Shown piece by piece: positions 13,503 through 49,768 of a DNA stretch of 51,839 nt (positions are counted from its first letter, which is position 1; the number at the start of each line of letters is the position of its first letter). The stretch comes from an uncultured Halobacteriales archaeon (GTDB lineage: Archaea; Thermoplasmatota; E2; JACPAO01): the NCBI GenBank assembly GCA_964451065.1, contig CAYVGY010000001.1:1-51839 (forward strand). The letters run 5' to 3'. The notes below the pieces were generated by a model. It was not told the origin of the DNA. It was given only the letters and a program-made list of their open reading frames with translations, and ran no database searches. The position numbers and the translations under genes are program-made.

Positions 13503-14390
13503 TTGCGCCAGTTAGGCCTTATCTATCTTCCAACAAGCGTGGTTCATCGGTGGTTCCACATCCACCGATCGATTGCCGCCCTGCTCGCCCTGCTCTTCAT
13601 GGGATATGCGATTTCGGGTTGCCTTCAGCGTGACGGCGACAAGGAAGAGACGACGGACGAGACGGGCACGTCCGGCACGACGACCACGCCGACCAACACG
13701 GCGGCGACGACCACGAACCGGACGCGCCCGACGGGCACGGGTGCGAATCATCCGCCGTCGGCCTCCCTCACGGCCGAAAGCGAGAACCGCGCGTTGGACG
13801 TGAACTTCACGATTCGGGTCCTGGACCGCGACGGCGACGATATTTCGTGGACGCTCGACGCCGATGGCGACGCGTCAACGGATGAATCCGGACGCACGAA
13901 CAACGCGACCTACACGCACACGTACGAGTCCAACGGGACCTACAACGCGACCCTGGACGCCACCGACGGCGAACTCACCACCAGCGTGAACGTGACCGTC
14001 ACGGTGGGCGGCACCGGCGGCGGCAACGAATCGATCCAATCCTTGCAGCGCGTCGAGGGCAGTTACGACCTGGGTGGCCCCGTTGAATGCCTCTTCGGCT
14101 TCTTGGACGACTTCGAGAACCTCACCTTCGTCAAGTTCACGGTCGACAACGCCACCCGCGAGCTCGGGTTCAACGCCACGTTCGACTTCGCGGTCCCCGG
14201 CATCGCCGCCGTCGACTTCTACGACGTCGAGGACGAGTACATTGAGACCCACGGCGGCCTCCTCGATCCCGGGAACTACGGGGACTCCGTGGTGAGTGGC
14301 ATCGTCCACGAGGACGCCGTCACGGGCTACTTGTATAGTTGCGGCGGCGCCGCCGTGGACGTCGTTTACGAAGTCGCCTGGCCGGCCTGA
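13503..14390 (+). CDS. Lipobox-containing surface protein with PKD-like domain
   Basis: The signal peptide ends in the lipobox-like AISGC, followed by a Thr-rich linker. ANHPPSASLTAESENRALDVNFTIRVLDRDGDDISWTLDADGD...YTHTYESNGTYNATLDATDG is PKD-like. Many N-x-S/T sequons. Confidence 0.7.
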   Translation: MRQLGLIYLPTSVVHRWFHIHRSIAALLALLFMGYAISGCLQRDGDKEETTDETGTSGTTTTPTNTAATTTNRTRPTGTGANHPPSASLTAESENRALDVNFTIRVLDRDGDDISWTLDADGDASTDESGRTNNATYTHTYESNGTYNATLDATDGELTTSVNVTVTVGGTGGGNESIQSLQRVEGSYDLGGPVECLFGFLDDFENLTFVKFTVDNATRELGFNATFDFAVPGIAAVDFYDVEDEYIETHGGLLDPGNYGDSVVSGIVHEDAVTGYLYSCGGAAVDVVYEVAWPA

Positions 14391-14486: not shown

Positions 14487-15722
14487 GTGGTTCGCCTGGG
14501 AGCGAAGCTGAGCATTGTTTTGTCGGCCGTGACGATTGTCGCCTTGTTTTCGGGTTGCACGAGCAAGGACACGAAGGACGAAGCCGGCGAGGAAAGCGAA
14601 TTCGGCGTGAGCCAGGACGAGGCTGGCGGCGCCGGCGAGGCCGCCGAGAACCTGGCGCCGGTAGTGTCCCTCAAGGTCTTGGCCGGCGGCGCGGAATTGA
14701 CGGCGACGAGCGGCACCATCGCGGCGGACGCGGACGAGAGCCTCACCTTCGATGCATCCGCATCTTCGGATCCCGACGGCGACGTGGTTTCCTACGCGTG
14801 GACGGTGGACGGCGCCGAGGCCAACGAGACGACGCCCTCGATCACGCGCGCATTCGACGGGGGGGACCACCGCGTGGCGGTCACGGTGAGCGACGCGGAA
14901 CTCTCCTCAGACCAATCCATCCTGATCCAGATTCCCTTGGGGGAAAGCGAGGATGTGCCGGTCCAAGCGTCGGCGGTCCTTCATGAGACATTCGCCGGCA
15001 CCTTGGCGGGCGGTTCGATCTCCGATCCCGCCGGCACCGACGCCCTCGTGGGCGATTACGTCTCCCACGCGTTCGAGGTCCCCGCCGGCGCTACCCAGAT
15101 CGTGGTGATGACGGAGTGGATTGACCCTGTCGGCGAGCACATGCCGGTCACGTCCGACATCGACGTGTTCCTCCTGAATCCGGCCGGCGCCTCGCAAGCC
15201 AGCGGCGAGACGTACAACTTCGAGTACGTCCGCCTCAACGACACGAAGAAGCTTGTGGAAGGCACGTGGAAGGTTCAGCTCCTGCCGTACAACGTTCCGG
15301 ACGACGTCGACTACACGGTCGACGTGTTGGTGTGGACGGGCTCCGTGGGTCGATCCGTGTTCGAGGGGTCCGTCACTGGAAAGGTCGACGCCGGGACCCC
15401 GGCGGATTCGGCCGCGCTCTCCCACATGGTCAGCCTCCCGGCGGCGTCCGCGGTCGTGGCGCGCCTCACCTGGTTCGGGGCTGGCCAACCCGGCGCACGC
15501 GTGGGTTCATGCACCCAAGGGGCCATCGTTCCCAACGACTTCGACTTCTTTGCCAAGGCGGGCGGGAAGACCCAGTTCCAATCGCAAGACGGCGCAACCT
15601 GCGAGTTCGGCTTCATCGCGGCGGAACCCGACAAACCCATCCCCACGGGGGAGTGGACGTTCGAACTCGTGCAGTTCTTGGTGACCGACGCGGATTACAC
15701 CCTCGAAGTCGAGTGGGGTTAA
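14487..15722 (+). CDS. Lipobox-containing surface protein with PKD-like domain and beta-sandwich C-terminal domains
   Basis: LSAVTIVALFSGC is lipobox-like. LTFDASASSDPDGDVVSYAWTVDG...HRVAVTVSDAE is PKD-like. TATA-like tagatatac about 29 nt upstream of the GTG. Confidence 0.7.
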   Translation: MVRLGAKLSIVLSAVTIVALFSGCTSKDTKDEAGEESEFGVSQDEAGGAGEAAENLAPVVSLKVLAGGAELTATSGTIAADADESLTFDASASSDPDGDVVSYAWTVDGAEANETTPSITRAFDGGDHRVAVTVSDAELSSDQSILIQIPLGESEDVPVQASAVLHETFAGTLAGGSISDPAGTDALVGDYVSHAFEVPAGATQIVVMTEWIDPVGEHMPVTSDIDVFLLNPAGASQASGETYNFEYVRLNDTKKLVEGTWKVQLLPYNVPDDVDYTVDVLVWTGSVGRSVFEGSVTGKVDAGTPADSAALSHMVSLPAASAVVARLTWFGAGQPGARVGSCTQGAIVPNDFDFFAKAGGKTQFQSQDGATCEFGFIAAEPDKPIPTGEWTFELVQFLVTDADYTLEVEWG

Positions 15723-16552: not shown

Positions 16553-17191
16553 ATGCGGCGGGCGGTCGTGGTGGGGAACTCCGACCTTCCGCCACGTCAG
16601 ATCGCCGCGCCGTGGATCGAACGCGCCGATCTCATCATCGCCGCGGACGGCGGCGCCAACCGCCTCCTCGCGCTGGGCTGGGAACCGGACCTGGTTGTGG
16701 GCGACATGGACAGCGTGCTCGGCAGCACACGACGAAGACTCGGCCGCCGACGATTCAAGGCGATGCGCGACCCCAACCGGACGGATTTGGAGAAAGCCCT
16801 CGGCGTCGCCCACGATCGGGGCTGCCGCGACGTGAGCATCTTTGGCGTTAGCAAGGGCCGACTCGACCACGTCCTGGGCGCCGTCTCCATCCTCCTGGCG
16901 TGGACCTCGAAGTTTCGCCTTCGCCTCGTGGACGAGGACTTCACCACGGAAGTCGTCCGACGCAAGCTGCGGTTCCGCGCGCCGCCGGGAACCGTCGTGA
17001 GCCTCTGGGCCCCCTCCGGCGCCAAGGGCGTGGACACGCGGGGCCTCAAGTGGCGGCTCAAGGGCGCGACGCTCCGCCGCGGGACGCTCGGCATCCACAA
17101 CTTCGTCGAGCAGAGTCCTGTGATTATCTCGGTGGCCGAGGGAGACCTGCTGGTGATGCGTGGCCATTGGGTCGAGCCGCACGGCCGTTAG
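16553..17191 (+). CDS. Thiamine pyrophosphokinase
   Basis: MRRAVVVGNSDL...LIIAADGGAN...VVGDMDSV...DPNRTDLEKAL...FGVSKGRLDHVLG is the TPK catalytic-domain pattern. ATG at 16553. Confidence 0.7.
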   Translation: MRRAVVVGNSDLPPRQIAAPWIERADLIIAADGGANRLLALGWEPDLVVGDMDSVLGSTRRRLGRRRFKAMRDPNRTDLEKALGVAHDRGCRDVSIFGVSKGRLDHVLGAVSILLAWTSKFRLRLVDEDFTTEVVRRKLRFRAPPGTVVSLWAPSGAKGVDTRGLKWRLKGATLRRGTLGIHNFVEQSPVIISVAEGDLLVMRGHWVEPHGR

Positions 17192-17565
17192 CCGAGGGGC
17201 ACGATGTCGCCCAATCCTTCCAGGCTCGGGTTCACGCTGATGACCCGGCCACCAATGGCTTCCGCCGTGGCCACAACGAGCGCGTCGCGCACCTGAAGCC
17301 GCGGCTTTTCGTGCGTCGCCAGGAACCGTCCGGCGCGGGCGGCGATGTCGGTCGTCACGGGCTGGATGGTGCCGCGGGACTCGATGAACTGGATGAATTC
17401 CGCCGGGTTGTCCTTGCGCTGCCGGGCGGCCTCCGTCACCTCGGCCACGACCGAGGCCGGCGTCACGGTCTCGTCCGCCTTCTGGACGTAGGCTCGGACG
17501 ACCTCGCCTTCGGCGGTGCCGTTGAAGTACGCGAACCAGGCGGAGGCGTCCAAGACGATGATCAC
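17188..17565 (-). CDS. vapC: PIN-domain toxin VapC
   Basis: MIIVLDASAWFAYF...DALVVATAEA shows PIN acidic-residue spacing. It has a 4-nt overlap with the upstream AbrB-type gene. Confidence 0.8.
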   Translation of the reverse strand: MIIVLDASAWFAYFNGTAEGEVVRAYVQKADETVTPASVVAEVTEAARQRKDNPAEFIQFIESRGTIQPVTTDIAARAGRFLATHEKPRLQVRDALVVATAEAIGGRVISVNPSLEGLGDIVPLG

Positions 17566-17892: not shown

Positions 17893-17902
17893 TTTTTTAT
17901 AA
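17893..17902 (+). promoter_or_regulatory. TATA-like TTTTTTATAA
   Basis: Centred about 25 nt upstream of the ATG at 17923. This argues that 17923 rather than 17902 is the start of the next CDS. Confidence 0.4.
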
Positions 17903-17922
17903 TGACGACCTACTGTGCGACG

Positions 17923-18345
17923 ATGCGGGGACCCACGTCGATGCTCAAGGATCGCTTGTCGCTCATCGCGTCGAAGAAGCGCAACGGCCAAGCCGTCGCC
18001 TACAAACTCATCCACAAAACCCGCAAGGTCACCATCGAACGACCGCAATACGCCGCCGTCCACCAGCTTCCTAACCCCAAGTTTGCCAATGCGCTGGGCA
18101 ACTTCTGGCTCATCCAAGAAGCGACCCCCGGCCGGTTCCACATGGGCCGCAACGAGCACACGATCTACTACCGGGACCTCGAGTCCTCGAAGAAGGTCCT
18201 CAAGTACATGCTCGACCACGACCTCGACGTCCCGGCCAAGACCCCCAAGGGCAAACTCCCCACGTGGGTCGAAGAAGTCCAGGTCCAGGTCGCCGAAGAG
18301 ACGCCGTACAGCACCATCGACACGAGCTACTACAAGCTCATCTAG
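17923..18345 (+). CDS. Hypothetical protein (140 aa, no recognised motif)
   Basis: Good GC3 bias. MRGPTSMLKDRLSLIASKKRNGQAVAYKLIHKTRK...; the alternative start is 17902. Confidence 0.55.
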   Translation: MRGPTSMLKDRLSLIASKKRNGQAVAYKLIHKTRKVTIERPQYAAVHQLPNPKFANALGNFWLIQEATPGRFHMGRNEHTIYYRDLESSKKVLKYMLDHDLDVPAKTPKGKLPTWVEEVQVQVAEETPYSTIDTSYYKLI

Positions 18346-18403
18346 CGTGGCGTCGCCGGCCTTGGCCCCCTCGTGAGGACTCCCGACCATAACCGCTATA
18401 TGA

Positions 18404-20017
18404 ATGGTTCCGGTCCGGAAGATCGTGCGCACCCCCATGGGCCGCCCGATGGTCCGCCCCCGCCGGCTCGTGCTGCTTTTCGCCCTGCTCGTCGTCGGCG
18501 GGCTCGTGGTGACCTCCAATACGGCCGGCAAACGCAACGACCAGGACATCGAGGATAACCAGACCTTCGGCGTCCTCTACAAGGGCGACGGCCAAAGGGA
18601 CTGTTGGCGCCACCACAAGCCCGAAGGCATGGTCGACAGCCACATCGTCGTGCCGCTCTTCCCCCGCCAGGTCAAACTCGGCGAGCCCGCCGACCTCAAC
18701 CTCCAGATCGAGAACCCCTGGATCAATGAGATCACGGCCTACCGCGTGGTCCTCAACCTCACGAAGGCGCCCGGCATCCGCGCCCTCATTGGCCAACAGG
18801 CGGAGAGCCCCCCGCCGCTGTACAAGGACGCCACGGGCCGGATCGGGAACGCCGGATTTTACGAGAAGTTGCCCCCGGGAACCCGTCCCCTGGGCACGTG
18901 GGAAAACGTCACGTTCAACGTCACCGGGGAACCCCTCACCCTCTTTGCCCGGTTTGACTTCACCTCGGGCCCGGGCGACCCCGGCGACCCCCCGCAGGGC
19001 TTCCCCGAACTCCTCAAGATTTTCGTCTTCCCGCCGGGCTCCTCGAGCGCCATCGCCATGGACCAAGGCGACCGAGGGTACGGGCTCCCGTACCGCACCC
19101 TGACCTTGCCCAAAGGCGAAGGCACAGGGTTCGTCAACCTCGTGCCCGGCCCGTGGCGGTTCCAGGTCCACTACGAATCCGGAGACGCCCCCTACGCGGA
19201 CTGGCGCTTCAACGCCACCGCCGTCCTCAGGGGCGCAACGATCGGCGAGTTCGAGGTCTACAAGTTCGCCCGCGACCCGCCCGAGCTCGAGACGAAACCC
19301 AACATCGTCTACGTGGGCAAGAAGGGCGTCCTCGACCTTCCAGCGATCCCCATCGTGGGGTTTGCTTTGGGAGAGCAGGAAATCAAAGTCATGGTGGAGG
19401 CCAACCTCTACTACAAGCACAAGGGCGGCGGCCAACCCGATGAGGACTACTTCCGCCGCGTCGCCGTCGTCCAAGTCCCCGTCGGCGACACCTTCATCGA
19501 GAGCAGCGAAGAGGGCGCCGTGGCCGGCGTCGCGCTCGTCGACTTCCGCCTCATGGCGGGCGAGGTCACCGGCTTCGCCTCCGCCATCCTTCTGCTGCCT
19601 AGCCTCCTCTTCGGCGGCACCTACGGCAAGGCGTCCCGCAAGGCCTTCAACGCCATGCTCGGCGGTGCCAAGCGACGCGTCATGTTCCATAACCTCCTCA
19701 GCCTCGGCCTCACCCTCGTCGCCATCCTCCACATCGTCCTCTTCCTCCTCGAGGTCCGCTACAGCGTCCTCATGGGCGTCCTCTGGGGCGGCCTCGGCGC
19801 CCTGTCCCTCCTCGTCCTCGGCCTCTCCGGCTACTATCAAGTGCCGCTCATCCAGAAGTACGGCTACAACTGGTGGCGCTACACCCACCTCGCCTTCGGA
19901 ATCCTCGTCGTCGTCTTCGTGGCCCTTCACACGGTGCTGGACGGCGCCGACTTCTTCGACCCAGTGGAGGCCAAATTGCCGCAATGGCTCCAGACGTTCA
20001 ATCTCGTCGACAAGTGA
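18404..20017 (+). CDS. Membrane protein: N-terminal anchor, ~370-aa ectodomain, C-terminal 4-TM module with two His pairs (paralogue 1)
   Basis: LVLLFALLVVGGLVV is the anchor. The ectodomain carries DCWRHH...DSH and a CARDB-like segment. The C-terminus has MFHNLLSLGLTLVAILH and YTHLAFGILVVVFVALH (His at i and i+14 in two helices). The start may be ATG 18437, which has a TATA-like gctatatgaa at 18394-18403. Confidence 0.75.
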   Translation: MVPVRKIVRTPMGRPMVRPRRLVLLFALLVVGGLVVTSNTAGKRNDQDIEDNQTFGVLYKGDGQRDCWRHHKPEGMVDSHIVVPLFPRQVKLGEPADLNLQIENPWINEITAYRVVLNLTKAPGIRALIGQQAESPPPLYKDATGRIGNAGFYEKLPPGTRPLGTWENVTFNVTGEPLTLFARFDFTSGPGDPGDPPQGFPELLKIFVFPPGSSSAIAMDQGDRGYGLPYRTLTLPKGEGTGFVNLVPGPWRFQVHYESGDAPYADWRFNATAVLRGATIGEFEVYKFARDPPELETKPNIVYVGKKGVLDLPAIPIVGFALGEQEIKVMVEANLYYKHKGGGQPDEDYFRRVAVVQVPVGDTFIESSEEGAVAGVALVDFRLMAGEVTGFASAILLLPSLLFGGTYGKASRKAFNAMLGGAKRRVMFHNLLSLGLTLVAILHIVLFLLEVRYSVLMGVLWGGLGALSLLVLGLSGYYQVPLIQKYGYNWWRYTHLAFGILVVVFVALHTVLDGADFFDPVEAKLPQWLQTFNLVDK

Positions 20018-20125
20018 GCCGCGGCCGGCAGTTTCAACGATCTGCTTGAAGGATTCGACCAGGCCCGCCTGGGATCTTTTCCCCAACCGACCACAACCGC
20101 CATAAGAACGGGGCGGCGCCGTTGG

Positions 20126-21700
20126 ATGGCCATGGGGTTCGCACGCCGTCGGTCACGCCGCCGAATCATCCTGGTGGGCGTCCTGGTCCTCGTGGCCCTC
20201 GTGGTCGCCACGAACGCCGCCAGCCGCCGCAACCAAGACCTCGACGCCAACCACGAGTTCGGCCGCATCTACAAAGGCGACGCCCAGAAAGACTGCTGGA
20301 GGCACCACCGGTCCGACGCCGTCCCCATGGTCGACAGCCACGTCGTCATCCCGCTTTTTCCCAAGCAGGTGAAATTGAACGAACCCGCCGATCTGCGCCT
20401 CCAGATCGAGAACCCATGGTTGGCTGAGATCACCGCCTACCGCGTCGAACTGAACCTCACGAAGGCGCCAGGGCTTCGTGCCCTCGTGGGCGAGGCGGCC
20501 GAGCCCGAGCCGCCGTTCGCCGTCGAGGCCACGGGTCGGCTCCTCAACAACCTCGTCAACCAGACCTTGCCCAAGGGCACCGAACCCGCCCCGAGCTGGA
20601 CCAACGTCACCGTGAACCTCACCGGCGACCCCATCAGGTTCTTGGTGCAGCTGGACCTCACGTTCGGCCCCAACGACCTGCCACCCGACACGGCACTCCC
20701 GGACGAGGTCACGGTCACCGTCTATCCGCCGGGAGGGTCGGCCAGCGCGATGCTGCCCCGCGACGATACCGCCACCCATCGCACGCTCCGCGTCCCCAAG
20801 GGCGAGAGCGCCGCCTTCGACTACCCGACGCCCGGCCAGTACCGCTTTCAGATCGGCTTCGTTTCGGGCGCCGCCGAGTACGTCGACTGGCGCCTCAACG
20901 CGACCGCGGAGCATCGCCGCCCGTCCCAAGCGACCGTCGAGGTGCTCCACCTGGCGAGGGACCCGCAAGAGCTCGAATCGACCCCGAACAGGGTCTACGT
21001 CGGGCCCGGCCAAGTGTTGGACGTACCGAGCATCCCCGTCGTCGGCGTCGCCCCGGGCCCCCAAGAAATCGAGGTCCTCGTCGAAGCCAACCTCTACTAT
21101 CGGCACGGCGGCGGCAAAGGCACCGACGAGGACTACTATCACCGCTACGCCGTGGTCATCGTCAACGTCGGCGACACGTTCATCCCCGGCGACGACCTGG
21201 GAGCGACCAGCCGCGCGATCCCCATGGACTTCGGCTTCGCCATGGCCGAGATCACGGGGTTCGCCTCCGCGGCCCTGCTGGTCCCCAGCCTGCTGCTGGG
21301 CGGCACCTATGGCAAGGCCTCGCGCCAATTCTTCAACGCGGTCCTCGGCGGCGCCAAGCGACGCGTCATGTTCCACAACCTCGTGAGCCTCGGCCTCACC
21401 GCCCTCGCCATCGTCCACATCCTCCTGTTCCTGGCGGAGCTCCGCTACACGGTCCTCATGGGGCTCCTCTACGGCGGCCTCTCCGCCCTCTGCCTGTTGG
21501 TCCTCGGCCTAACGGGCTTCTACCAAGTGCCGCTCATCCAACGGCACGGGTACGAATGGTGGCACACCGTCCACCTGGTCACGGGCATCCTCCTCGTGCT
21601 TTTCGTGGCCATGCACGCCGTGGCGGATGGCGCGGACTTCGCCTCGTTGCGAGCTCAGCTTCCCGAATGGGTGGCGCGGTTCAACATCGCCACGGGATAG
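20126..21700 (+). CDS. Paralogue 2 of the ectodomain + 4-TM bis-His module protein
   Basis: Alignable end to end with 18404-20017. It shares DCWRHH, MVDSH, LQIENPW..EITAYRV.LNLTKAPG, GGTYGKASR, GGAKRRVMFHNL and both H-x13-H helices (MFHNLVSLGLTALAIVH; TVHLVTGILLVLFVAMH). Confidence 0.75.
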   Translation: MAMGFARRRSRRRIILVGVLVLVALVVATNAASRRNQDLDANHEFGRIYKGDAQKDCWRHHRSDAVPMVDSHVVIPLFPKQVKLNEPADLRLQIENPWLAEITAYRVELNLTKAPGLRALVGEAAEPEPPFAVEATGRLLNNLVNQTLPKGTEPAPSWTNVTVNLTGDPIRFLVQLDLTFGPNDLPPDTALPDEVTVTVYPPGGSASAMLPRDDTATHRTLRVPKGESAAFDYPTPGQYRFQIGFVSGAAEYVDWRLNATAEHRRPSQATVEVLHLARDPQELESTPNRVYVGPGQVLDVPSIPVVGVAPGPQEIEVLVEANLYYRHGGGKGTDEDYYHRYAVVIVNVGDTFIPGDDLGATSRAIPMDFGFAMAEITGFASAALLVPSLLLGGTYGKASRQFFNAVLGGAKRRVMFHNLVSLGLTALAIVHILLFLAELRYTVLMGLLYGGLSALCLLVLGLTGFYQVPLIQRHGYEWWHTVHLVTGILLVLFVAMHAVADGADFASLRAQLPEWVARFNIATG

Positions 21701-31463: not shown

Positions 31464-32603
31464 GTGGATTTCCGCCTCACGCGCGAACAGGAGCTCATCC
31501 GCGACACGGTTCGGCAGTTCGGCGAGAAGGAGATCTTCCCCGAGGCGTCGAAGATCGACAAGACCGGACGGTTCCCGACGAAGCTCGTGCAGCGCATGGC
31601 GGAACTGGGCCTCCTCGGCATGACGGTGCCCCAGGAGTGGGGCGGCGCCGGCACCGACTACGTGAGCTTCGCCTTGGCCGCCGAAGAACTCAACCGGTGG
31701 AGCGCTACGATGGGCGTCATCTTTGGGGCCAACAACAGCCTCACGTGCGGCCCCATCAACGCTTGGGGCACGCCCGAACAGAAGACGAGGTATCTCCGCC
31801 CGCTGGCCGAGGGTCGGCACCTGGGCGCCTACGCGCTCACCGAGCCGCAGGCCGGCAGCGACGCGGCCGCCCTGCGTACGTCCGCCCGCAAGGAGAAAGA
31901 CGGGTATGTCCTCAACGGACAAAAGACGTTCATCACGAACGGGTCCGTCGCCGACACCCTCATCGTGTTCGCCACCCTGGACCCCAAGCTCGGCCACAAG
32001 GGCATCACCGCGTTCATCGTCCCCAAGGGGACGGACGGGCTCATCATCGGCCAGGATTTTGAGAAGATGGGCCTCCACGGGTCGCCCACGAGTCAACTCC
32101 TCTTCGAAGAGTGCCGCCTCCCAGCAGAGAACCGATTGGGGCCCGAAGGCGACGGGTTCAAGATTGCTCTCGCCACCCTCGACACCGGCCGGATCATGGC
32201 CGCGGCCGGAAGCGTGGGCCTGGCCCGCGCCGCCTTCGAGGACGCGCGCGCCTACGCCCAAGAGCGCCGCACCATGGGGAAGCCCATCATCGAGCACGAG
32301 GCCATCCAGTTCATGCTGGCCGAGATGCAGACGAACATCGAGGCGGGCAGACTCCTGTACCTGCGCGCGGCGCGCCTGCGCGACGAAGGCAGGAAGATCA
32401 CCAAGGAGGCCTCCATGGCGAAGGTCTTCGCGAGCGAGATGGCGATGGACGCCACCATCAAGGGCATCCAGATCCACGGCGGCAACGGCTACATCACGGA
32501 CTACAACGCCGAGCGGTTCTTCCGCGACGTCAAGATTTTCGAGATCTTCGAGGGCACGAGCGAGATTCAACGCCTCGTGATTGCGCGGGAACTAGGATTG
32601 TAG
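31464..32603 (+). CDS. Acyl-CoA dehydrogenase (short/medium-chain type)
   Basis: GAYALTEPQAGSDAAAL, FITNG, IQIHGGNGY and EIFEGTSEIQRLVIAR are canonical ACAD motifs. GTG start with a TATA-like gaaataaac about 25 nt upstream. Confidence 0.9.
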   Translation: MDFRLTREQELIRDTVRQFGEKEIFPEASKIDKTGRFPTKLVQRMAELGLLGMTVPQEWGGAGTDYVSFALAAEELNRWSATMGVIFGANNSLTCGPINAWGTPEQKTRYLRPLAEGRHLGAYALTEPQAGSDAAALRTSARKEKDGYVLNGQKTFITNGSVADTLIVFATLDPKLGHKGITAFIVPKGTDGLIIGQDFEKMGLHGSPTSQLLFEECRLPAENRLGPEGDGFKIALATLDTGRIMAAAGSVGLARAAFEDARAYAQERRTMGKPIIEHEAIQFMLAEMQTNIEAGRLLYLRAARLRDEGRKITKEASMAKVFASEMAMDATIKGIQIHGGNGYITDYNAERFFRDVKIFEIFEGTSEIQRLVIARELGL

Positions 32604-36251: not shown

Positions 36252-38405
36252 ATGGGAACCCGCCCCGGCGAACGCGTCGGCATCATCTACGGCGAAGTCG
36301 CCTCGACCCACTTCAAGTTCGCCGCCAGCGACCCCGACGTCAAGCGCCTCGACTACGTGAGCGCCCAACACCCGGCCGGCGTCGCGTTGTGCCAGATCGT
36401 CGATGTCCAGCGTCAAAGCGAACTGAGCTTCGAAGAAGCCGTGAGCTTGGGCGGCCACGGAAGCCTCGCCACCGGCGACCATATGAGCTGCGGCGTCCGC
36501 GTCATCGGCTACCGCGACGAGCGTGGCCTCCTCCAGACGCCCCGCACCCCGTTCAAGGCCGGCACGGAGGTCCGCCGCGCGAGCGCCGACGTCGTCCAAA
36601 AAGTGCTGGGCCTCACGGCCAACCCCGACGAGGGCGTCTACCTGGGCCACCTCAAAGGCACCGACATCCCCGTCGTCCTCGACGCCGAGATCCTCGTCCA
36701 GAAGCACGCCAGCATCCTGGCCAAGACCGGCGCCGGAAAATCCTACGCCGTCGGCGTCATCATCGAAGAACTCCTCAAACGCCGCGTCGCCCTCGTCATC
36801 GTCGACCCCCACGGCGAGTACGGCACCCTCGCCAACCCCAACATCGAACCCAAGGAGGTCGACAACCTCATCCGGTTCCACCTCAAACCCAAATCCTTCG
36901 CGACCAACCTCAAGGAATACGCCCTCGACACCCGCCTTGCCCCCGGTGCCACCAAGCTGGCGCTCGACGGGTCCCACCTCGAGGCCCAAGACATCCTCGA
37001 CCTACTCGGCGGCAAGGCCTCCAGCGCCCAACAAGGCCTCTTGTACCAGGCCATCAACGCCCTTAAGAAGACCAAGCCCTACTACGCGCTCGCCGACATC
37101 ACGGAGGAACTCGGCCGGACGCCGAGCAACGCCAAGTGGCCCCTCATCGCCGCCATCGAGAATCTCCAAGGGACCCAACTCTTCGCCACGCCCCCCACGC
37201 CGCTCACCGACGTCGTCCGTCCCGGCAACGCCACCCTCCTCAACCTCAAGGGAACGCAACCCGAAGTCGCCGAGATCGTCGTGGCCCGCCTTGCGCGCGC
37301 CCTCTTCGACGCCCGCAAACGCGACACCGTGCCGCCCTTCCTCCTCGTCGTCGAGGAAGCACACAACTTCTGCCCCGAACGCGGCCTCGGCGCGGCGCGC
37401 AGCGGCCAAGAACTGCGCACAATCGCGAGCGAAGGCCGCAAGTTCGGCATGGGCCTCCTCATCGTGAGCCAACGCCCGGCCAAGGTCGACAAGAACGTCC
37501 TCTCCCAGTGCAACACCCAGATTATCCTCAAGGTCACCAACCCCAACGACCTCAAGGCCATCACGCACAGCGTGGAAGGCCTCACCGGCGACGCCGCCGA
37601 CGAGATCCAACGCCTCGACACCGGCGTCTCCCTCGTGGCGGGGGGCCGACTCACCGTCCCCATCCTCGTCGAGGTGCGGACACGCCAGACCCGCCACGGC
37701 GGCCGCTCCGTGAGCGTCGTCGTTGACGAGGAGGAAGCCGAGGCCTACGTGACGCAACCGCCGTCTGCCGCCGAGGCGGAGTCCATCGCGCACGAGCCAC
37801 CGCCCGAACCCGACCTTGTCCCCGCGGAACCCGCCGCCTCCGAGCCCCCCGAAGCGGTCGAGGTTGAACCCGTCGACCCCCCCCTGCCGGGACCGGAGCT
37901 CCCCGAGGTCGCCCCGCCCGGCCCGCAGCGCAAGCAGCTCCGGCCGGCCTCCGCCGATCTCTCCACCAAGGCGCCGTGGGGTCCGCAGGTTGAGCTCGAG
38001 GAACAACCCGAACCCCCCCTCAAGGGTCCCGCCCCGCCACCCCGGGGGCCGCTTGCGCCCCGGCCGGCCCCGGAGCGCCCACCAGAACCGACCCCGCCCG
38101 TGGACGTGGGCCCGGTCTTCGAACCCGAAGACATGGCTGTCCACCGCGTCCTGACCCGCATCGGATACGAAGGGGCACGCAACGCGCGCGAGGGCGTCCT
38201 CAAGGTGAAGGAGCTCGCCCGGTCCGTCGCCCTCATGGATCCCGACGCATACGTCCACGCCTTTGCCCGCATCGCCAAGACCTACTGCTTCCCCTCGCTG
38301 CCCGAATGCGGACCGTGTCCGCTTCGGCACCAATGCAAGATGGGGCTCCGGCGCCTCGCCCTGGGCGAGGTCCGCGACGGCCGCTGGGGCACACGGCGGA
38401 CCTAG
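36252..38405 (+). CDS. HerA/DUF87-type ATPase fused via Pro-rich linker to an endonuclease-III-like C-terminal [4Fe-4S] cluster-loop segment
   Basis: [11 protein letters not shown] is Walker A and [11 protein letters not shown] is Walker [18 protein letters not shown] and the N-terminal barrel region are HerA-like. A linker of about 140 aa is P/E-rich. The C-terminus [10 protein letters not shown]...[27 protein letters not shown] has C-X6-C-X2-C-X5-C at 38286-38336. TATA-like ccttaattc about 30 nt upstream. Confidence 0.8.
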
Positions 38406-40714
38406 CGGCCGCGCTGCGCCACGCGCCGGATCGCCGGCGAACGGGTCTCCGCCGGCTTCTGCGCGTCCACGACGCAGATGGCCGCCATGTTCACGATGTC
38501 CTCGACCTCGTCGCCCCGCTGGAGGATGTGACAGGGCTTGGCCATCCCTTCGAGAATAGGGCCCACCGTGTGGGCATCCGCGAGGCGCTGCAGCAGCTTG
38601 TAAGCGGTATTGGCCGCTTCCAGACTCGGAAAGACCAGGACATTGGCTGGCTCCTTCAACTTGCTGAACGGGAACGACTCACGCAGGAGCTCCGGCACGA
38701 TGGCGCTGTCGGCCTGCATCTCCCCGTCCACCATCAACGTGGGATCTCGCTCTTGCACACGTCGCGTGGCGGCGGCGACCTTGAGCGAGAAGGGGTGCCG
38801 GCTTGACCCAAAATTGCTGAAGCTCAGCATCGCCACGCGCGGCTCGACATCGAACTTGCGCGCCACGCGGGCCGCCGCCAGCGCGATTTCAACGAGGTCC
38901 TCCTCGCTCGGATCGATGTTCACGGTCGCGTCTGCGAGGAACAGCACGCGATCGGGGAAAGCCTGCATGTAACAACCGACGACCTTGTGCGCCCCCGGCT
39001 TCACGCCAATCACTTCGAGCGCAGGCCGCAACGCGTCCTGGTAGTGGAAACCGATGCCGCTGATGAGGCCGTCCGCTTCACCCATCTCGACCATCATGGC
39101 GCCGAAGTAGTTCCGGTTCCGCAGCAGTTCGCGGGCCTCCTGCTGGGTGACCCCTTTGCGGGCCCGCTTGGCCGCCAGGTGGTCGACGTAGTTCTTCATG
39201 CGCTCCGTGAAGACCTCGGCCCACGGGTCGACGCCATCGTATTCGAAGTCGAGGCCGAGCTCTCGCCGCTTCTGATCGATGAGGTTGAGGTCGCCCAAGA
39301 GGATGGGGCGGGCGATCTTCTCGTCATGCAGGACCTGGCAGGCGCGGAGAACTTTTTCGTGCATCCCCTCGGCGAACACGATCCGTTTCGGGTTCGCCTT
39401 GGCCTTGTTGAGGATGATCCGCATCATCTCGTATTCCTTGCCGAGGCGGGCCTCGAGGTCTTCGCGGTACTTGGCGAGGTCGATCTTCTTTCGAGCGACT
39501 CCGGTCGCCATGGCGGCCCCCGCGACGGCCGGTGCCACCCACAGGAGAACCCGCGGGTCGAGCGGCTTCGGGATGAGGTAATGCGCGCCGAACCGGATGG
39601 GTTCGCCCCCGTAGGCGTTGATGACGCTGTCCGGAACGTCCTCGCGCGCCAAGGCAGCCAACGCCTTGACCGCCGCCATCTTCATCTCGTCGTTGATCTG
39701 GCGCGAGCGCACGTCGAGCGCTCCGCGGAAGATGAAGGGGAACCCCAACACGTTGTTCACCTGGTTGGGGTAATCGCTGCGACCCGTGGCCATGATGATG
39801 TCGGGGCGCGCCGCCGTGGCAGCCTCGTACGTAATCTCGGGGTCCGGGTTGGCCAGCGCGAACACGATGGGTCGGTCCGCCATGGACCGGATCATGGACG
39901 CGTCCACAATGTTGGGGGCGGAGAGACCCATGAATACGTCGGCCCCTTTCATGGCGTCCGCGAGCGTCCGCGCCTTCGTGGTGCGCGCGTAGGCTTCCTT
40001 GTAGGGGTTCATGTTCTCTTTGCGGTCCTTGTAGACGACGCCCATCGTGTCCGTGAGCGTGATGTTTTCTCGGCGGACGCCAATCTGGACGTACATGTTG
40101 GCGCTCGCGATGCCGGCCGCGCCGGCGCCGGAGACGACGACGCGCACGTCCTTCGGCTTCTTGCCGACGACCTCGAGCGCGTTGAGGAGCGCGGCGGTCG
40201 TGATGATCGCGGTGCCGTGCTGGTCGTCATGGAAGACCGGGATGTCCATCGACTGCTTGAGCTTCTCCTCCACGTAGAAGCACTCGGGGGCCTTGATGTC
40301 CTCCAGGTTGATCCCGCCGAACGTGGGCTCGAGCGCTTTCACGATCTTGACGAGCCGATCGGGGTCCTTCTCGGCCACCTCGACGTCGAAGACGTTGATG
40401 TCCGCGAACCGCTTGAAGAGGATGCCTTTGCCTTCCATCACTGGTTTGCCGGCCTGGGGCCCGATGTCGCCAAGACCCAGGACCGCCGTCCCATTCGTGA
40501 TCACGCCCACCAGGTTGTCCTTCGTGGTGTAGCGGTACGCGAGGTCGGGGTCCTTCTCGATCTCCCGACAAGGTTCCGCCACGCCGGGCGTGTAGGCCAG
40601 CGCGAGGTCGCGCTGGGTGACGGCGGGCTTGGTGGGCCGCACCTCGATCTTGCCGTGGGGCGTGCGGGAATGGTATTCCAGCGCTTCCTCCCTGGAGACC
40701 TGGACGTGCTTCAT
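38402..40714 (-). CDS. maeB: NADP-dependent malic enzyme, MaeB type (malic enzyme + PTA-like domain)
   Basis: 770 aa. [43 protein letters not shown] and VVSGAGAAG, plus a C-terminal phosphotransacetylase-like half. Confidence 0.9.
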
Positions 40715-44116: not shown

Positions 44117-45736
44117 TTGGCCAAAAAAGAGCTGGTGGAGCGATTGCGGGTCATCCTTGTCGTTTTGTTCTTCCTCGCGGGCGTCTTCACGCTGGCGCCC
44201 GAGGCGTCCGCCAAAGAGACCACCATCGTGATCCTCCACGATGTGCCGGACGACGGCTACACTTACGTGGGCAACCCCGTCCACTTCGGGTACGTCATCC
44301 TCACCGATGGCCAGACGTCGCGCCACCAGGACGGGTACATTCGCGTCACGCAGAACAACGTCACCCTGTACGAGACGAACGCGAAGGCCAGCCATGACTA
44401 CAACGGCCTCAACACGTTCGTCGTCGCCTTCCCCGCCGTCGGCCCCTACGAGGTCTACGCGGAGATTCCCGACGGCGGCCCCGTCCCAACGAGGGCCAAC
44501 TTCACGGGCTTTGTGATGCCCAACAACAACACTAGGATGCTCCATCTCGATGTCGACTCCAGCCTTAGCCAAGGCGTCGGCTCCTTCACCATCGCGCTCA
44601 ACGACCACACCGGCGCCCTCCTCAACCACTCCGACGCCCTCTTCGAGGTGCGCCGGCCGGGCGACGACTGGCTCCTCTTCCGTACCCATCTCCACACGCA
44701 CACGGAGCCGATGGCGCTCTCCTACCGGTTCCAGGAACCCGGCGAATACCTCATCCGGGTCGTCGGCTACAACGCGTTCCCCACGCCCGACGGCGACCAC
44801 TACGCGCCTGCCGCCACGACGCTCACGGTCGACGTGCCCGCCGCGGCCCCGGACGCCGGCGCATCCAGCGTGAGCCTTCCAGCACCCAAAGGAACGAACC
44901 CCTTCACCCTGCTCACCGCCATCGACCCGCAACGTACCGCCCAGCCCGGCAGCCGGTTCATCCCCAGCGTCCTCGTGCAAGATCCAACGACGGGCGCCTT
45001 CGTCCCCCACGTCAACTTTGAAGCGCTCTTGACCGACGCCGCGGGCCGGCTCCTCTTCCATTCTGCTTCGCTCCACGAGTACGACGGCCACTTCGACCTC
45101 GTGTACGAGACCACGCTCCCTGGCACGTACTTGCTCCAAGTGAACGTCGAACGCGGCGACTGGATCGCCCGCTCCGAGATTCCGTTCATCGTGGCGGAAG
45201 CCGTCCCCCACGACGACCGCGTGCCGGTCGGGCCCGAGCCCGGCGGTACGCCGCTCCTCACCTCCGCAGGCGCCGTCGTCGTGACGGCCGAAGGCCTCAC
45301 GGGCCTCAAGAGCGGCCTGGCCAGCCACCTTACGTTCCACGCCCGGAACGTGGCCGGCGTGGCCGCCCAACACACGGAGATCGATTACCAGGTCCTGCGC
45401 ACCGAGTGGGGGGCCCCCGTCCTGCAGAACAAGATCCATACGCACGGCACGGGCGACTTCGAGGTGGAAGTGAACTTCCCTGACCCCGGCGAATACGTCC
45501 TCGTGCTGGACCCTGTGACCATCCACGGCGAACCGGTGAAGGACTTCTACTTCGGCGAAGTCGGCGGAAGCCTCGTCGTGCCACTCACGGTTGGCATGGG
45601 CGCGGTCTTCCCGAGCTTCCAGCCGCCCGAGATCGACGCGCCGGCTGAACCCGCGGAGGTCCTGCCGGGCTTCGAGCCCTTCGTGGCGCTACTGGCCGCG
45701 TTTGGAGTCCTCGTGATCGCGCGTCGCCGCGCCTAG
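44117..45736 (+). CDS. Surface protein with signal peptide, four His-rich beta-sandwich-like repeats and a PGF-CTERM-like sorting signal
   Basis: Signal peptide LVVLFFLAGVFTLAPEASA. Four repeats end in P(G/V)xY...V: PAVGPYEVYAEI; THLHTHTE...EPGEYLIRVVG; LHEYDGHFD...LPGTYLLQVNV; IHTHGTGDFEVEVNFPDPGEYVLVLDP. The C-terminus is LPGFEPFVALLAAFGVLVIARRRA. Confidence 0.7.
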   Translation: MAKKELVERLRVILVVLFFLAGVFTLAPEASAKETTIVILHDVPDDGYTYVGNPVHFGYVILTDGQTSRHQDGYIRVTQNNVTLYETNAKASHDYNGLNTFVVAFPAVGPYEVYAEIPDGGPVPTRANFTGFVMPNNNTRMLHLDVDSSLSQGVGSFTIALNDHTGALLNHSDALFEVRRPGDDWLLFRTHLHTHTEPMALSYRFQEPGEYLIRVVGYNAFPTPDGDHYAPAATTLTVDVPAAAPDAGASSVSLPAPKGTNPFTLLTAIDPQRTAQPGSRFIPSVLVQDPTTGAFVPHVNFEALLTDAAGRLLFHSASLHEYDGHFDLVYETTLPGTYLLQVNVERGDWIARSEIPFIVAEAVPHDDRVPVGPEPGGTPLLTSAGAVVVTAEGLTGLKSGLASHLTFHARNVAGVAAQHTEIDYQVLRTEWGAPVLQNKIHTHGTGDFEVEVNFPDPGEYVLVLDPVTIHGEPVKDFYFGEVGGSLVVPLTVGMGAVFPSFQPPEIDAPAEPAEVLPGFEPFVALLAAFGVLVIARRRA

Positions 45737-46749
45737 GCGCTAGGGGCCAGAGAGGCGTCCTTGCGGCGGCGTCGCGTCCCACCTTCGCGTGCCTCCAAGA
45801 TGGCGCGACGCGCAAAGACCCGGCTCATCTTCTTACGGTAGCTAGGAGATAGGCTCGTGTTCTTGACCGGCCGCACGTTCTGTTCGACGCCAGTCGCGAT
45901 GTCGTCGATTGCCCGGTCGGTCAACGCTTTGCCGATGTTCTGTTCTCCCAGGTGGTCGAGGACTTTGGGCGCCATCTCCAAGGCGTTGGCCACCAGATGG
46001 AATTCTTCCAGTCGTCCGTCGCGGAGACGCAGGGCGACCGCGATGCCCAGTTCGGGGAAATCCCAGGAATCACGCAGCCGCAGCTTGTGGTAGCTTGCCG
46101 AGAGTCCAGAAGCGCTCGTCGGGAGGTGGACGAAGGTGAGGAGCTCGTCGGGGCGGCGGCCGTGGCGGTCGATGCCGTCGTTGTGGTAGAAGTTGGCGGC
46201 GGGAACGCGTCGGGTGCCCTTGGGTGAAGCCAGCTCGAACTCCGCGCCGAGCGCGATGAGCGGGGCCGGAAGGTCGGCGCTAAACGTGGCGTAGCATTTC
46301 GATTCTTGCGGCACGACGTGGCATGCTTTTCCGTCGGCCTTGAGGCAGAAATCGATGCTTTCGCGCCACACGTGGGATTGGTTGAAGAAGGAGCAACGGT
46401 TTTCGAGGAGGAGGTTGCCGCCCAAGGTTCCGCTTTGGCGGATGAGCGGGCTCGCGATGAGGGCGGCCGTGTGGGGGACCACGGGGACCGTGGACCAGAG
46501 AGCCGCGTCCTCGCTGATCTGTCGAAGGGTGGCCAGCGCCCCGAGCCGGGTGGGCGACACGCGCCGCAGTTCTTCCACGCGGTGGAGGCTGATGACGTGG
46601 GGCTTCGTGTTCAGCATCCACTTGTAGTTCGGGAGTAGGTCGGTGCCGCCGGCCACCCAATCGCTCTCGGGGTGCCGTCGACGCGCCTCGACGGCCTCCT
46701 CAATCGTGGAAGGCTCGTGGAGCTCGAAGGGGGGCAGGAGCATGCTCAT
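45733..46749 (-). CDS. Mo-hydroxylase FAD-binding (medium) subunit with a 4-Cys insertion
   Basis: WVAGGTDLL and SGTLGGNL are the FAD_binding_5 pattern. The insertion is C119-x15-C135-x7-C143-x8-C152 (46294-46395). The ATG overlaps the large-subunit stop. Confidence 0.85.
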   Translation of the reverse strand: MSMLLPPFELHEPSTIEEAVEARRRHPESDWVAGGTDLLPNYKWMLNTKPHVISLHRVEELRRVSPTRLGALATLRQISEDAALWSTVPVVPHTAALIASPLIRQSGTLGGNLLLENRCSFFNQSHVWRESIDFCLKADGKACHVVPQESKCYATFSADLPAPLIALGAEFELASPKGTRRVPAANFYHNDGIDRHGRRPDELLTFVHLPTSASGLSASYHKLRLRDSWDFPELGIAVALRLRDGRLEEFHLVANALEMAPKVLDHLGEQNIGKALTDRAIDDIATGVEQNVRPVKNTSLSPSYRKKMSRVFARRAILEAREGGTRRRRKDASLAPSA

Positions 46750-49229: not shown

Positions 49230-49768
49230 GCGGGTTTCCTCCCGGGCTTCGAGACGGTCTTCTTGGGCGTCAAGAGTTCGGTCTCGGCGCGCCCGGGCGC
49301 GAGTTCGTCTGCGGCCTTCTGGACCGCCTTGAAGATCTTCACGTACCCGGTGCAGCGGCAGAGGTTGCCGCTGAGGGCCTGGCGAATCTGCGGCAACGTT
49401 GGCCGTGGCGTGTGGTCGAGGAGGGCCTTGGTGGACATGATGAAGCCGGGCGTGCAGAAGCCGCACTGGCTGCCGCCGAGTTCGGAGTAGGCCTTCTGGA
49501 CGGGGTGGAGGTGGCTGGGGGTGCCGAGGGCTTCGATGGTCGTGACGTTGTGGCCCGCGGCTTGGGCGGCCAGCGTGAGGCAGCTGAGTTGGGCTTGGCC
49601 GTCGATGATGACGGTGCAGCAGCCGCAGGTGCCCATGTCGCAGCCGCGTTTGGTGCCGGTGAGGTGCAGCTTGTCGCGGAGGACGTCGAGCAGGATGGCC
49701 TGGGGTTCGGCGGCGACGTCGCGGTCGGTGCCGTTCACGTTGAGGTGCAGGATGCGAGTGCGTGTCAC
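49226..49768 (-). CDS. Mo-hydroxylase [2Fe-2S] (small) subunit
   Basis: GCDMGTCGCCTV and QCGFCTPG...LCRCTGY carry the two 2Fe-2S motifs. GTG 49768 overlaps the xdhC stop. Confidence 0.9.
   Translation of the reverse strand: MTRTRILHLNVNGTDRDVAAEPQAILLDVLRDKLHLTGTKRGCDMGTCGCCTVIIDGQAQLSCLTLAAQAAGHNVTTIEALGTPSHLHPVQKAYSELGGSQCGFCTPGFIMSTKALLDHTPRPTLPQIRQALSGNLCRCTGYVKIFKAVQKAADELAPGRAETELLTPKKTVSKPGRKPA

Follow-up and report, generated by a model that had tools for sequence, protein, structure and literature searches.

A tandem gene pair from an uncultured archaeon encodes putative di-haem electron conduits of the ferric reductase domain superfamily, fused to a beta-sandwich ectodomain

On a 51,839-nucleotide stretch of DNA from an uncultured archaeon (assembly GCA_964451065.1, contig CAYVGY010000001.1, positions 1 to 51,839; hereafter the window), two adjacent genes on the forward strand encode proteins in which a large ectodomain precedes a C-terminal membrane module with two pairs of histidines, which raises the question of whether they carry electrons across the membrane and, if so, by which route. 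An earlier note on this DNA had proposed that both proteins (copy 1 and copy 2) are di-haem conduits resembling ferric reductase domain (FRD), NOX or MsrQ proteins, fused to a large ectodomain in an architecture that had not been characterised. This proposal is supported by the analysis presented here, and no paper describing the family was found. We hypothesize, with a probability of about 0.6, that both genes encode trans-membrane electron conduits of the FRD superfamily, each made of one polypeptide, in which two b-type haems and a third, c-derived haem would form a wire exporting electrons to the cell surface.

The assignment to the FRD superfamily is drawn from the membrane module. The hallmark of the FRD is a set of four canonical histidines, two on transmembrane helix (TM) 3 and two on TM5, spaced 13-14 residues apart, the first of each pair ligating the haem on the cytoplasmic side and the second the haem on the surface side (PMC3591440). 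Both window proteins display His-x13-His pairs, H429/H443 and H495/H509 in copy 1 and H417/H431 and H483/H497 in copy 2, all at i/i+14 as previously noted, and the four histidines are invariant both in a close-family alignment of 32 sequences and in the 70 true relatives (overall identity 16-57%) among the 72 proteins of a broad alignment, in which identity drops to 16-27%. In fact, the Pfam model PF01794 (Ferric_reduct, 121 positions) is matched from position 1 to 121 by copy 1 (residues 389-506, 27.1 bits, E = 4.9e-6) as well as by copy 2 (residues 377-494, 22.2 bits, E = 1.5e-4). Both scores lie just below the gathering cut-off of 28 bits, which weighs against the assignment; nevertheless, 60 of the 72 aligned proteins match the model at E <= 0.01, with a best E of 4.4e-9, and the membership of the window proteins is thus supported by transitivity. 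The other Pfam families recurring among the aligned proteins are haem-b families only, DUF4405 (20 proteins) and Ni_hydr_CYTB (8), no confident match to a non-redox family was found in Pfam or NCBIfam, and some relatives bear the NCBI name 'ferric reductase-like transmembrane domain-containing protein'. The mean column identity is 68% in this module and 33% in the ectodomain; the most conserved parts of the protein are the cytoplasmic loops (GGAKRRVMFH and TGYYQVPLIQ..WWR), and the small residues G458, G462 and G476 of the module are conserved as well.

Comparisons with solved structures point both ways. The best Foldseek match of the modelled module was FdnI (1kqf_C, probability 0.98, TM-score 0.51, E = 0.41), further matches being cytochrome b561 and cytochrome b6; all are di-haem b bundles, which supports the assignment weakly but consistently, and none of them is significant, as all E-values exceeded 0.1. 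Against the assignment, sequence and profile searches of the PDB with the module, using the close and the diverse alignments, returned no match, a PDB sequence search with the full protein returned no useful one, and hhalign alignments with E. coli MsrQ were not significant (probability 0.1-4.4%), the register being partly plausible for helix h5 alone. Together with the individual Pfam scores, the absence of a significant structural match could favour a non-redox role, in which the four-helix module would be a membrane anchor for a surface glycoprotein and its histidines would be kept for structural or transport reasons. We give this explanation hardly any credence, given the four invariant histidines in the exact FRD pattern, the conserved glycines, the recurrence of PF01794 and of haem-b families alone among the relatives, and a CxxCH motif in half of the family.

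In the FRD the cofactor-binding four-helix bundle is formed by helices h2-h5, h1 and h6 being protein-specific (PMC12525009). Five helices, an N-terminal anchor and four at the C-terminus, are counted in the window proteins as opposed to six in the FRD, and the chain ends about 25 residues beyond h5. Since the bundle itself is present, the window proteins are considered to have the FRD core, the anchor standing in for h1 (the proposed equivalent of the copy 1 anchor) and h6 being absent. The ectodomain is then placed in the h1-h2 loop, in accordance with the known outward orientation of that loop in FRD proteins, and as a consequence the KRR-containing h2-h3 loop would lie inside, like the B-loop of NOX. 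No FAD_binding or NAD_binding match from Pfam, and no dehydrogenase domain, is found in the window proteins or in the 72 aligned proteins. In the MsrQ/YedZ-STEAP branch the first TM3 histidine is replaced by a conserved arginine, and in STEAP a TM5 histidine is replaced by glutamine, but the inner-site positions are histidines in all 70 members and the MsrQ/STEAP-type arginine at the first TM3 histidine is not seen. To judge from sequence, the window proteins are a 'short' FRD form keeping both haem sites, which was rare in a 2013 survey; the same survey listed four archaeal FRD genes only, for which horizontal gene transfer was inferred (PMC3591440). The full set of canonical histidines, found in NOX and long FRE proteins and not in the single-haem YedZ/STEAP pattern (PMC3591440), would also suit a NOX-like enzyme reducing O2 to superoxide at the outer face. 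We regard such an activity as highly improbable: the FAD/NADPH dehydrogenase domain is lacking, and the signature of O2 reduction in NOX, a histidine four residues past the outer TM3 histidine (His-119 of NOX2; PMC3591440), corresponds here to F447, a phenylalanine invariant in the close family, which makes NOX-type O2 reduction unlikely.

The ectodomain, of about 340 residues in each copy, belongs to no Pfam or NCBIfam family, either in the window proteins or in their aligned relatives. The CARDB-like segment suggested previously could not be confirmed, as CARDB (PF07705) gave no match to the window proteins even at E <= 1, nor to the 72 aligned proteins at E <= 0.01, although the AlphaFold2 (AF2) model does show beta-sandwiches. 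Foldseek with the full model gave generic beta-sandwich or jelly-roll matches only, and the ectodomain profile searched against the PDB gave only a chance-level match to an MG domain of complement C3 (E = 1). As stated before, N-x-S/T sequons are present, five per copy and all in the ectodomain; in copy 1 four of them lie within residues 81-361 and N52 lies upstream.

The residues at the start of the ectodomain bear on a possible third redox centre. C-x-x-C-H is the universal haem-c signature, and the earlier note, having found no such motif, concluded that these proteins are not c-type cytochromes. Both window proteins do read CWRHH, but in the 70 relatives, in which column 67 is always Cys and column 71 always His, column 70 is Cys in 33 and His in 37, with no other residue. 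The window motif is therefore a Cys-to-His variant of a site that roughly half of the family retain unaltered, the window proteins being derivatives of a c-type site and not canonical members, and the conclusion in the note was too strong. The single conserved Cys that had been described per protein is correct for copy 1, where C67 is the only Cys, while copy 2 holds C57, its sole ectodomain Cys, plus one TM Cys; by crude counts, family members mostly have one or two ectodomain Cys and up to four. Position 339 is His in 68 of the 70 relatives, the other two being gapped rows, and is invariant in the close family, which makes H339 the obvious candidate for a distal ligand, as far as alignment can tell; M76 is conserved in the close clade only. 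All basal clades of a neighbour-joining tree carry CxxCH, and CxxHH turns up in at least three separate places. Each change from Cys to His at column 70 takes two nucleotide substitutions (TGY to CAY), and the recurrence of His alone, at the cost of two changes each time, argues for selection and not for decay. A mutual-information scan for a column co-varying with the Cys/His state returned phylogenetic signal only. Our own reading is that the ectodomain site is a putative haem site, of c type in half of the family and kept in modified form in the window proteins. Haem at this site is very probable for the CxxCH members, and for the CxxHH members we lean towards it by a little.

Several points speak against a haem at the modified site. 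CxxHH is not a documented haem-attachment motif, and a literature search found neither a description of CXXHH as a haem motif nor one of an FRD combined with CxxCH in archaea. No CcmC/CcmF WWD motif, as a sign of cytochrome-c maturation genes, was found in about 220 kb, made up of related loci and 52 kb of the window's own genome, a result that is uninformative but lends no support; H339 may also be distant from the membrane surface, so that electrons leaving the outer haem would have farther to travel. In addition, alternation between Cys and His would sooner be expected of a metal ligand than of a Cys engaged in a thioether bond, and for this reason the main rival to a third haem is a metal site, in which the FRD module would be di-haem as proposed and C-x-x-[C/H]-H with H339 would bind Cu, Fe or Zn, serving as a redox relay, as the bound substrate of a metalloreductase or as a structural ion. 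Column 70 holds only classical metal ligands and never Ala, Ser or Phe, the residues met with in known single-Cys cytochromes c; C67, H70/H71, H339 and, within the close clade alone, M76 look like a set of ligands of the type Cys/His/His(/Met), and the FRE and STEAP relatives reduce Fe3+ and Cu2+ (PMC3591440). We still consider a metal site unlikely, since an exact C-x-x-C-H occurs in a nearly Cys-free extracytoplasmic domain fused to a haem-b module, His71 is invariant at i+4 as the proximal ligand of a haem would be, M76 is not conserved beyond the close clade, and no metal-binding family is matched.

One may also suppose that the CxxHH proteins, both window copies included, have lost the ectodomain cofactor and keep a mere glycosylated scaffold or binding domain, the surface-side haem b then passing electrons straight to substrates like Fe(III) or Cu(II) chelates, in the manner of STEAP and FRE. 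Indeed, 37 of the 70 members lack the second thioether Cys, the ectodomain evolves fast, its middle sandwich is similar to repeats found in giant surface proteins, and glycosylation genes are frequent neighbours. We take this loss to be quite unlikely, because every CxxHH member keeps C67, H71 and H339, through three or more independent origins of the type, and His is the only replacement that occurs; the site thus seems to be retained under selection. Retention of a modified haem site is the reading that we carry into the proposed mechanism.

In this mechanism the N-terminal helix (FRD h1) would cross from inside to outside, the glycosylated ectodomain with its three beta-sandwiches would be inserted in the outer h1-h2 loop, and h2-h5 would form the four-helix bundle. 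H429 and H495 are predicted to ligate the cytoplasm-side haem b, H443 and H509 the surface-side haem b, and C67-x-x-H70-H71, with H339 as distal ligand, would form the third redox centre, the CxxHH site of the window proteins probably still holding haem through one thioether bond and His ligation. Electrons would pass from a cytoplasmic donor to the inner haem b, the outer haem b, the ectodomain centre and finally an extracellular acceptor. The most likely donor would be reduced flavin, which an enzyme of the NAD(P)H:flavin or nitroreductase type would supply much as Fre does for MsrQ, or alternatively membrane quinol, and a soluble donor enzyme may dock on the highly conserved basic cytoplasmic loops. 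On the outside, the acceptor may be Fe(III) or Cu(II) reduced for uptake, a partner in extracellular respiration or another oxidant. Haem binding, the direction of electron flow, donor and acceptor are the parts of this scheme that we infer.

The duplication is another recurrent feature of these proteins. Tandem pairs were seen five times, in L001, L002, L003/L004, L008 and the window, the contig of P0016 having a single copy, and the pairs of L001, L002 and L003/L004 occupy the same spot as that of the window, so that the pairing is syntenic in related genomes. Three of the five combine a CxxHH with a CxxCH protein (P0002 with P0030, the second gene of L003 with P0031, and P0038 with P0051), P0030, P0031 and P0051 being the CxxCH members, and the remaining two, L002 and the window, combine two CxxHH proteins. 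The mixed pairs belong to three separate lineages (L008 10001-12971, L001 421-3593 and L003 7834-11083), and the pair of L008 carries the consecutive NCBI accessions MBW3581836 and MBW3581837. In the window, the two ectodomains are 54% identical to each other and at most 40% to those of any other member; since they are mutually closest, the sequences indicate a lineage-specific tandem duplication, with copy 2 evolving faster. Gene conversion between the window copies was considered and ruled out, as the TM module of copy 1 is closer to its orthologues (78-79%) than to copy 2 (71%).

The family as a whole is very rare. An exhaustive profile search with the ectodomain alone returned only 69 cluster representatives among 1.84 billion proteins, and a detectable relative was present in only 2 of about 185,000 species-level genomes. 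The full-length ectodomain matches that were retrieved and aligned all have the same architecture and the same four TM histidines; beyond these, the matches comprise only short sequences, which are probably fragments, and very large repetitive surface proteins sharing the middle sandwich only. The latter, P0036 (3195 aa), P0042 (1514 aa) and P0089 (1148 aa), match this sandwich repeatedly, with 16 stretches in P0036 and 11 in P0042, and Calx-beta domains also occur in P0042 and P0089; to judge by these repeats, the middle sandwich probably represents a surface-repeat module of a generic kind. Where source names are given, the relatives come from 'Candidatus Thermoplasmatota', 'Thermoplasmata' or 'Euryarchaeota archaeon', and every gene context examined is archaeal, of Thermoplasmatota-like metagenome-assembled genomes.

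The coordinates of the pair and of its parts are collected in Table 1. As first described, the two open reading frames (ORFs) align over their full length (57% identity over 499 aa in BLASTP, E = 0), and a G+C content at third codon positions (GC3) of 0.90 in both, on a background of 65% GC, marks them as real genes among many spurious high-GC ORFs. Between 15000 and 25000 both strands of the window hold many long antisense or overlapping ORFs, such as 18338-20086 on the minus strand (582 aa), which are regarded as artefacts of the 65% GC because their GC3 is below that of the true frames. The layout of one N-terminal helix and four C-terminal helices, with the ectodomain between them, agrees with the earlier description and is supported concordantly by hydropathy, by the positive-inside count of K/R and by the secondary structure of an AF2 model of copy 1, built from the 32-sequence alignment with a mean predicted local distance difference test (pLDDT) score of 83.9. 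The peptides quoted previously (MFHNLLSLGLTLVAILH, YTHLAFGILVVVFVALH, MFHNLVSLGLTALAIVH, TVHLVTGILLVLFVAMH, DCWRHH and MVDSH) were all found in the translations, and the identical 23-nt stretch around AKRRVMFH is present in both copies, within 300 nt that are 78% identical between them at the DNA level. Architecture, the signal of FRD membership, residue conservation, synteny, motif polymorphism and recurrent duplication are thus read directly from the data.

Table 1. Positions in the window of the two genes and of their main features.
Feature	Position	Strand	Details
Copy 1 gene	18404..20017	+	537 aa: anchor helix, ectodomain, 4-helix haem-b module (putative); 31 homologues
Copy 2 gene	20126..21700	+	524 aa; architecture as copy 1
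Copy 1 N-terminal signal-anchor helix, aa 19-40	18458..18523	+	AF2 helix 19-40; hydropathy segment 17-42; 5 K/R ahead
Copy 2 N-terminal signal-anchor helix, aa 9-34	20150..20227	+	Hydropathy segment 9-34; aligned with copy 1 anchor
Copy 1 motif DCWRHHKPEGMVD, aa 66-78 (C67-x-x-H70-H71)	18599..18637	+	Translation; short AF2 helix 67-74
Copy 2 motif DCWRHHRSDAVPMVD (C57, H60, H61)	20291..20335	+	Translation; alignment to copy 1
Copy 1 ectodomain, aa 81-361, three beta-sandwich blocks	18644..19486	+	AF2 strands 81-148, 166-275, 282-361
Copy 1 His339 codon (YYxH)	19418..19420	+	Invariant in close-family alignment; candidate distal ligand
Copy 2 His327 codon, equivalent to copy 1 H339	21104..21106	+	Alignment; translation
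Copy 1 four-helix putative haem-b module, aa 381-513, equivalent to FRD core h2-h5	19544..19942	+	AF2 helices 381-403, 422-449, 455-477, 488-513
Copy 1 His codons	H429 19688-19690; H443 19730-19732; H495 19886-19888; H509 19928-19930	+	Codons checked
Copy 2 four-helix putative haem-b module	21230..21628	+	PF01794 match aa 377-494
Copy 2 His codons	H417 21374-21376; H431 21416-21418; H483 21572-21574; H497 21614-21616	+	Codons checked
23-nt stretch GCCAAGCGACGCGTCATGTTCCA	19667-19689 = 21353-21375, identical	+	Encodes AKRRVMFH (cytoplasmic basic loop and inner-haem His)

In the window the pair is accompanied by housekeeping genes, encoding a tRNA-intron endonuclease, an AlaX-like protein, thiamine pyrophosphokinase, a PIN-domain protein, a GPN-loop GTPase, PurD, PurL and a phosphoribosyltransferase, and related metagenomic contigs share this gene block, one or two FRD genes standing at the corresponding position; distant members neighbour genes for Nop/fibrillarin, the ribosomal proteins L39e, L31e and S19e, and RFC. 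The PIN-domain (VapC-like) gene lies at 17188-17565 (-) in the window and at 4883-5487 in L003; its counterpart in the related loci forms a toxin-antitoxin pair with a small gene of the MazE/AbrB antitoxin type, and this pair is located within the conserved housekeeping block. The gene contexts examined reveal no redox partner that is shared between clades, which is a further point against the proposed conduit. A nitroreductase-family gene is located directly upstream on the same strand in L009 (14 nt) and L011 (37 nt), a setting that recalls the reduction of MsrQ by Fre (PMC12525009) and, by this analogy, suggests that a nitroreductase-family enzyme may be the cytoplasmic electron donor. In the loci concerned (L009 3649-4812 and L011 2-562) a GT4 glycosyltransferase gene follows downstream, and L009 adds a divergent Flavin_Reduct gene. 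The adjacency is limited to the P0041/P0044 subclade and was not seen in L007, L008, L010, L015 and L016, so a universal neighbouring redox partner was rejected. Glycosylation genes (epimerase, GT4 glycosyltransferase, STT3/AglB) often adjoin, in accordance with a glycosylated surface protein.

The gene immediately upstream of the pair, at 17902-18345 (+) with a probable start at 17944 (134/147 aa, the protein being taken as 134 aa), had been considered for shared synteny. Its product has no Pfam or NCBIfam match and is 80-86% identical in L001-L004 and L006; the gene is always located slightly upstream of the FRD genes in the close clade and is absent near distant members. Since it is far more conserved than the FRD genes, as housekeeping genes are, and missing near distant members, it was rejected as a partner and is probably an unrelated neighbour, which looks like an uncharacterised, strongly constrained archaeal core protein.

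Other genes of the window were noted in passing. It is rich in genes for surface proteins, which comprise, besides the FRD pair, two adjacent secreted PKD-domain proteins (13503-14390 and 14487-15722, both +), the second with a lipobox-like 'LFSGCTSK' after the signal, and a 539-aa secreted protein (44117-45736, +) with an N-terminal signal and a C-terminal 'LPGFEPFVALLAAFGVLVIARRRA' tail that looks like a PGF-CTERM archaeosortase sorting signal. The latter protein is His-rich (THLHTHTEP, HTHGTGDF), has beta-sandwich repeats and a weak Filamin match, and is unrelated to the FRD ectodomain; it was tried as a third paralogue and showed no similarity. A molybdenum-hydroxylase pair of the CoxL/CoxM or xanthine-dehydrogenase type (MoCoBD_1/2 and FAD_binding_5) is encoded at 45733-49466 (-), and near it are genes for an acyl-CoA dehydrogenase (31464-32603) and a malic enzyme-PTA fusion (38402-40714); together these suggest an aerobic or facultative heterotroph.

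FRD proteins such as NOX, FRE, STEAP and MsrQ constitute the main dedicated single-electron export system of cells, and have hitherto been viewed as bacterial and eukaryotic, the archaeal copies being sporadic and transferred. The basic nature of the window proteins is not new, because their membrane module falls in this established superfamily and the name ferric reductase-like is already attached to some relatives at NCBI. What appears to be new, on the alignments at hand, is an archaea-specific and deeply diversified FRD branch, a minimal h1-h5 form with both putative haem sites and no dehydrogenase domain, the fusion to an otherwise unknown beta-sandwich ectodomain carrying a c-type haem motif, and the strict, recurrent alternation of CxxCH and CxxHH together with frequent tandem pairing. 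The family represents a vertically inherited archaeal branch of the superfamily and a compact candidate for extracellular electron transfer or reductive metal uptake in archaeal lineages not known for cytochromes, and the switch from CxxCH to CxxHH may serve as a natural experiment on the role of the second thioether Cys in haem attachment. A bolder idea, which we hold to be doubtful, is that of an archaea-specific family of three-haem (b-b-c) surface reductases in which CxxCH repeatedly became CxxHH, the latter being an undescribed haem-binding mode. If so, CxxHH would hold haem by one thioether and an extra His, itself covalently linked or a switchable ligand, the CxxCH and CxxHH paralogues would act paired, as a heterodimer or as variants of redox potential, and cytochrome-poor Thermoplasmatota-like archaea would gain a means of transferring electrons to the outside or of taking up metals reductively.

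In comparison with known systems, the window proteins share with the FRD superfamily (NOX, FRE/FRO, bacterial short FRD, MsrQ/YedZ and STEAP; PF01794) the h2-h5 four-helix bundle, the basic B-loop ahead of h3, a Trp placed four positions ahead of the first His of h5, the outward h1-h2 loop and a predicted electron flow from the cytoplasm to the outside. As in NOX2 (101/115 and 209/222), two histidines lie on h3 and two on h5, here at i/i+14, and the roles of H101/H209 and H115/H222 served as the model for assigning the inner and outer haem ligands. They differ in having neither h6 nor an FAD/NADPH dehydrogenase domain, in keeping the four histidines where most short bacterial FRD proteins, MsrQ and STEAP have Arg/Gln and a flavin at the inner site, in the ectodomain of about 340 aa with its CxxCH/CxxHH site between h1 and h2, and in being archaeal, with a sequence link to MsrQ that is not significant. 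The E. coli MsrPQ system with Fre offers another stand-alone FRD membrane protein devoid of its own dehydrogenase, and the nitroreductase-family gene upstream of two distant members suggests a comparable donor, even though this adjacency is seen in one subclade only. In contrast, MsrQ holds one haem plus flavin mononucleotide where two haem sites are predicted here, and its acceptor MsrP is a molybdoenzyme in its own right, specified by a gene of the shared operon, whereas here the acceptor domain is fused and no MsrP-like gene lies nearby.

Fusions of a di-haem membrane module to an extracellular redox domain provide further parallels. In CYBDOM, a di-haem cytochrome b561 and an extracellular DOMON beta-sandwich with haem b form a three-haem wire for ferric reduction. 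The window proteins may be likened to CYBDOM and to FRD-DOMON fusions in joining a di-haem TM module to an extracellular beta-sandwich with a further putative haem; they differ from CYBDOM in that its membrane module is a cytochrome b561 and theirs an FRD, and from DOMON in that it has no detectable homology to the ectodomain and that the haem here would be bound at a covalent site of c type (CxxCH) or at the CxxHH site derived from it. In CbcL of Geobacter, a membrane di-haem b module is joined to extracytoplasmic c-type haem for electron export, but the membrane fold is of the FdnI/HydC type, the haems are many and there is no sequence similarity to the window proteins. Cytochrome f, a mostly-beta cytochrome of the c type, has a membrane anchor and carries CxxCH close to its mature N-terminus, though it has no haem-b module and likewise no sequence similarity. 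DOMON is itself listed among the fusion partners of the FRD (PMC3591440). By analogy, MsrQ with Fre, CYBDOM and CbcL-type fusions may be seen as the closest functional counterparts of the window proteins, these being resemblances and not memberships.

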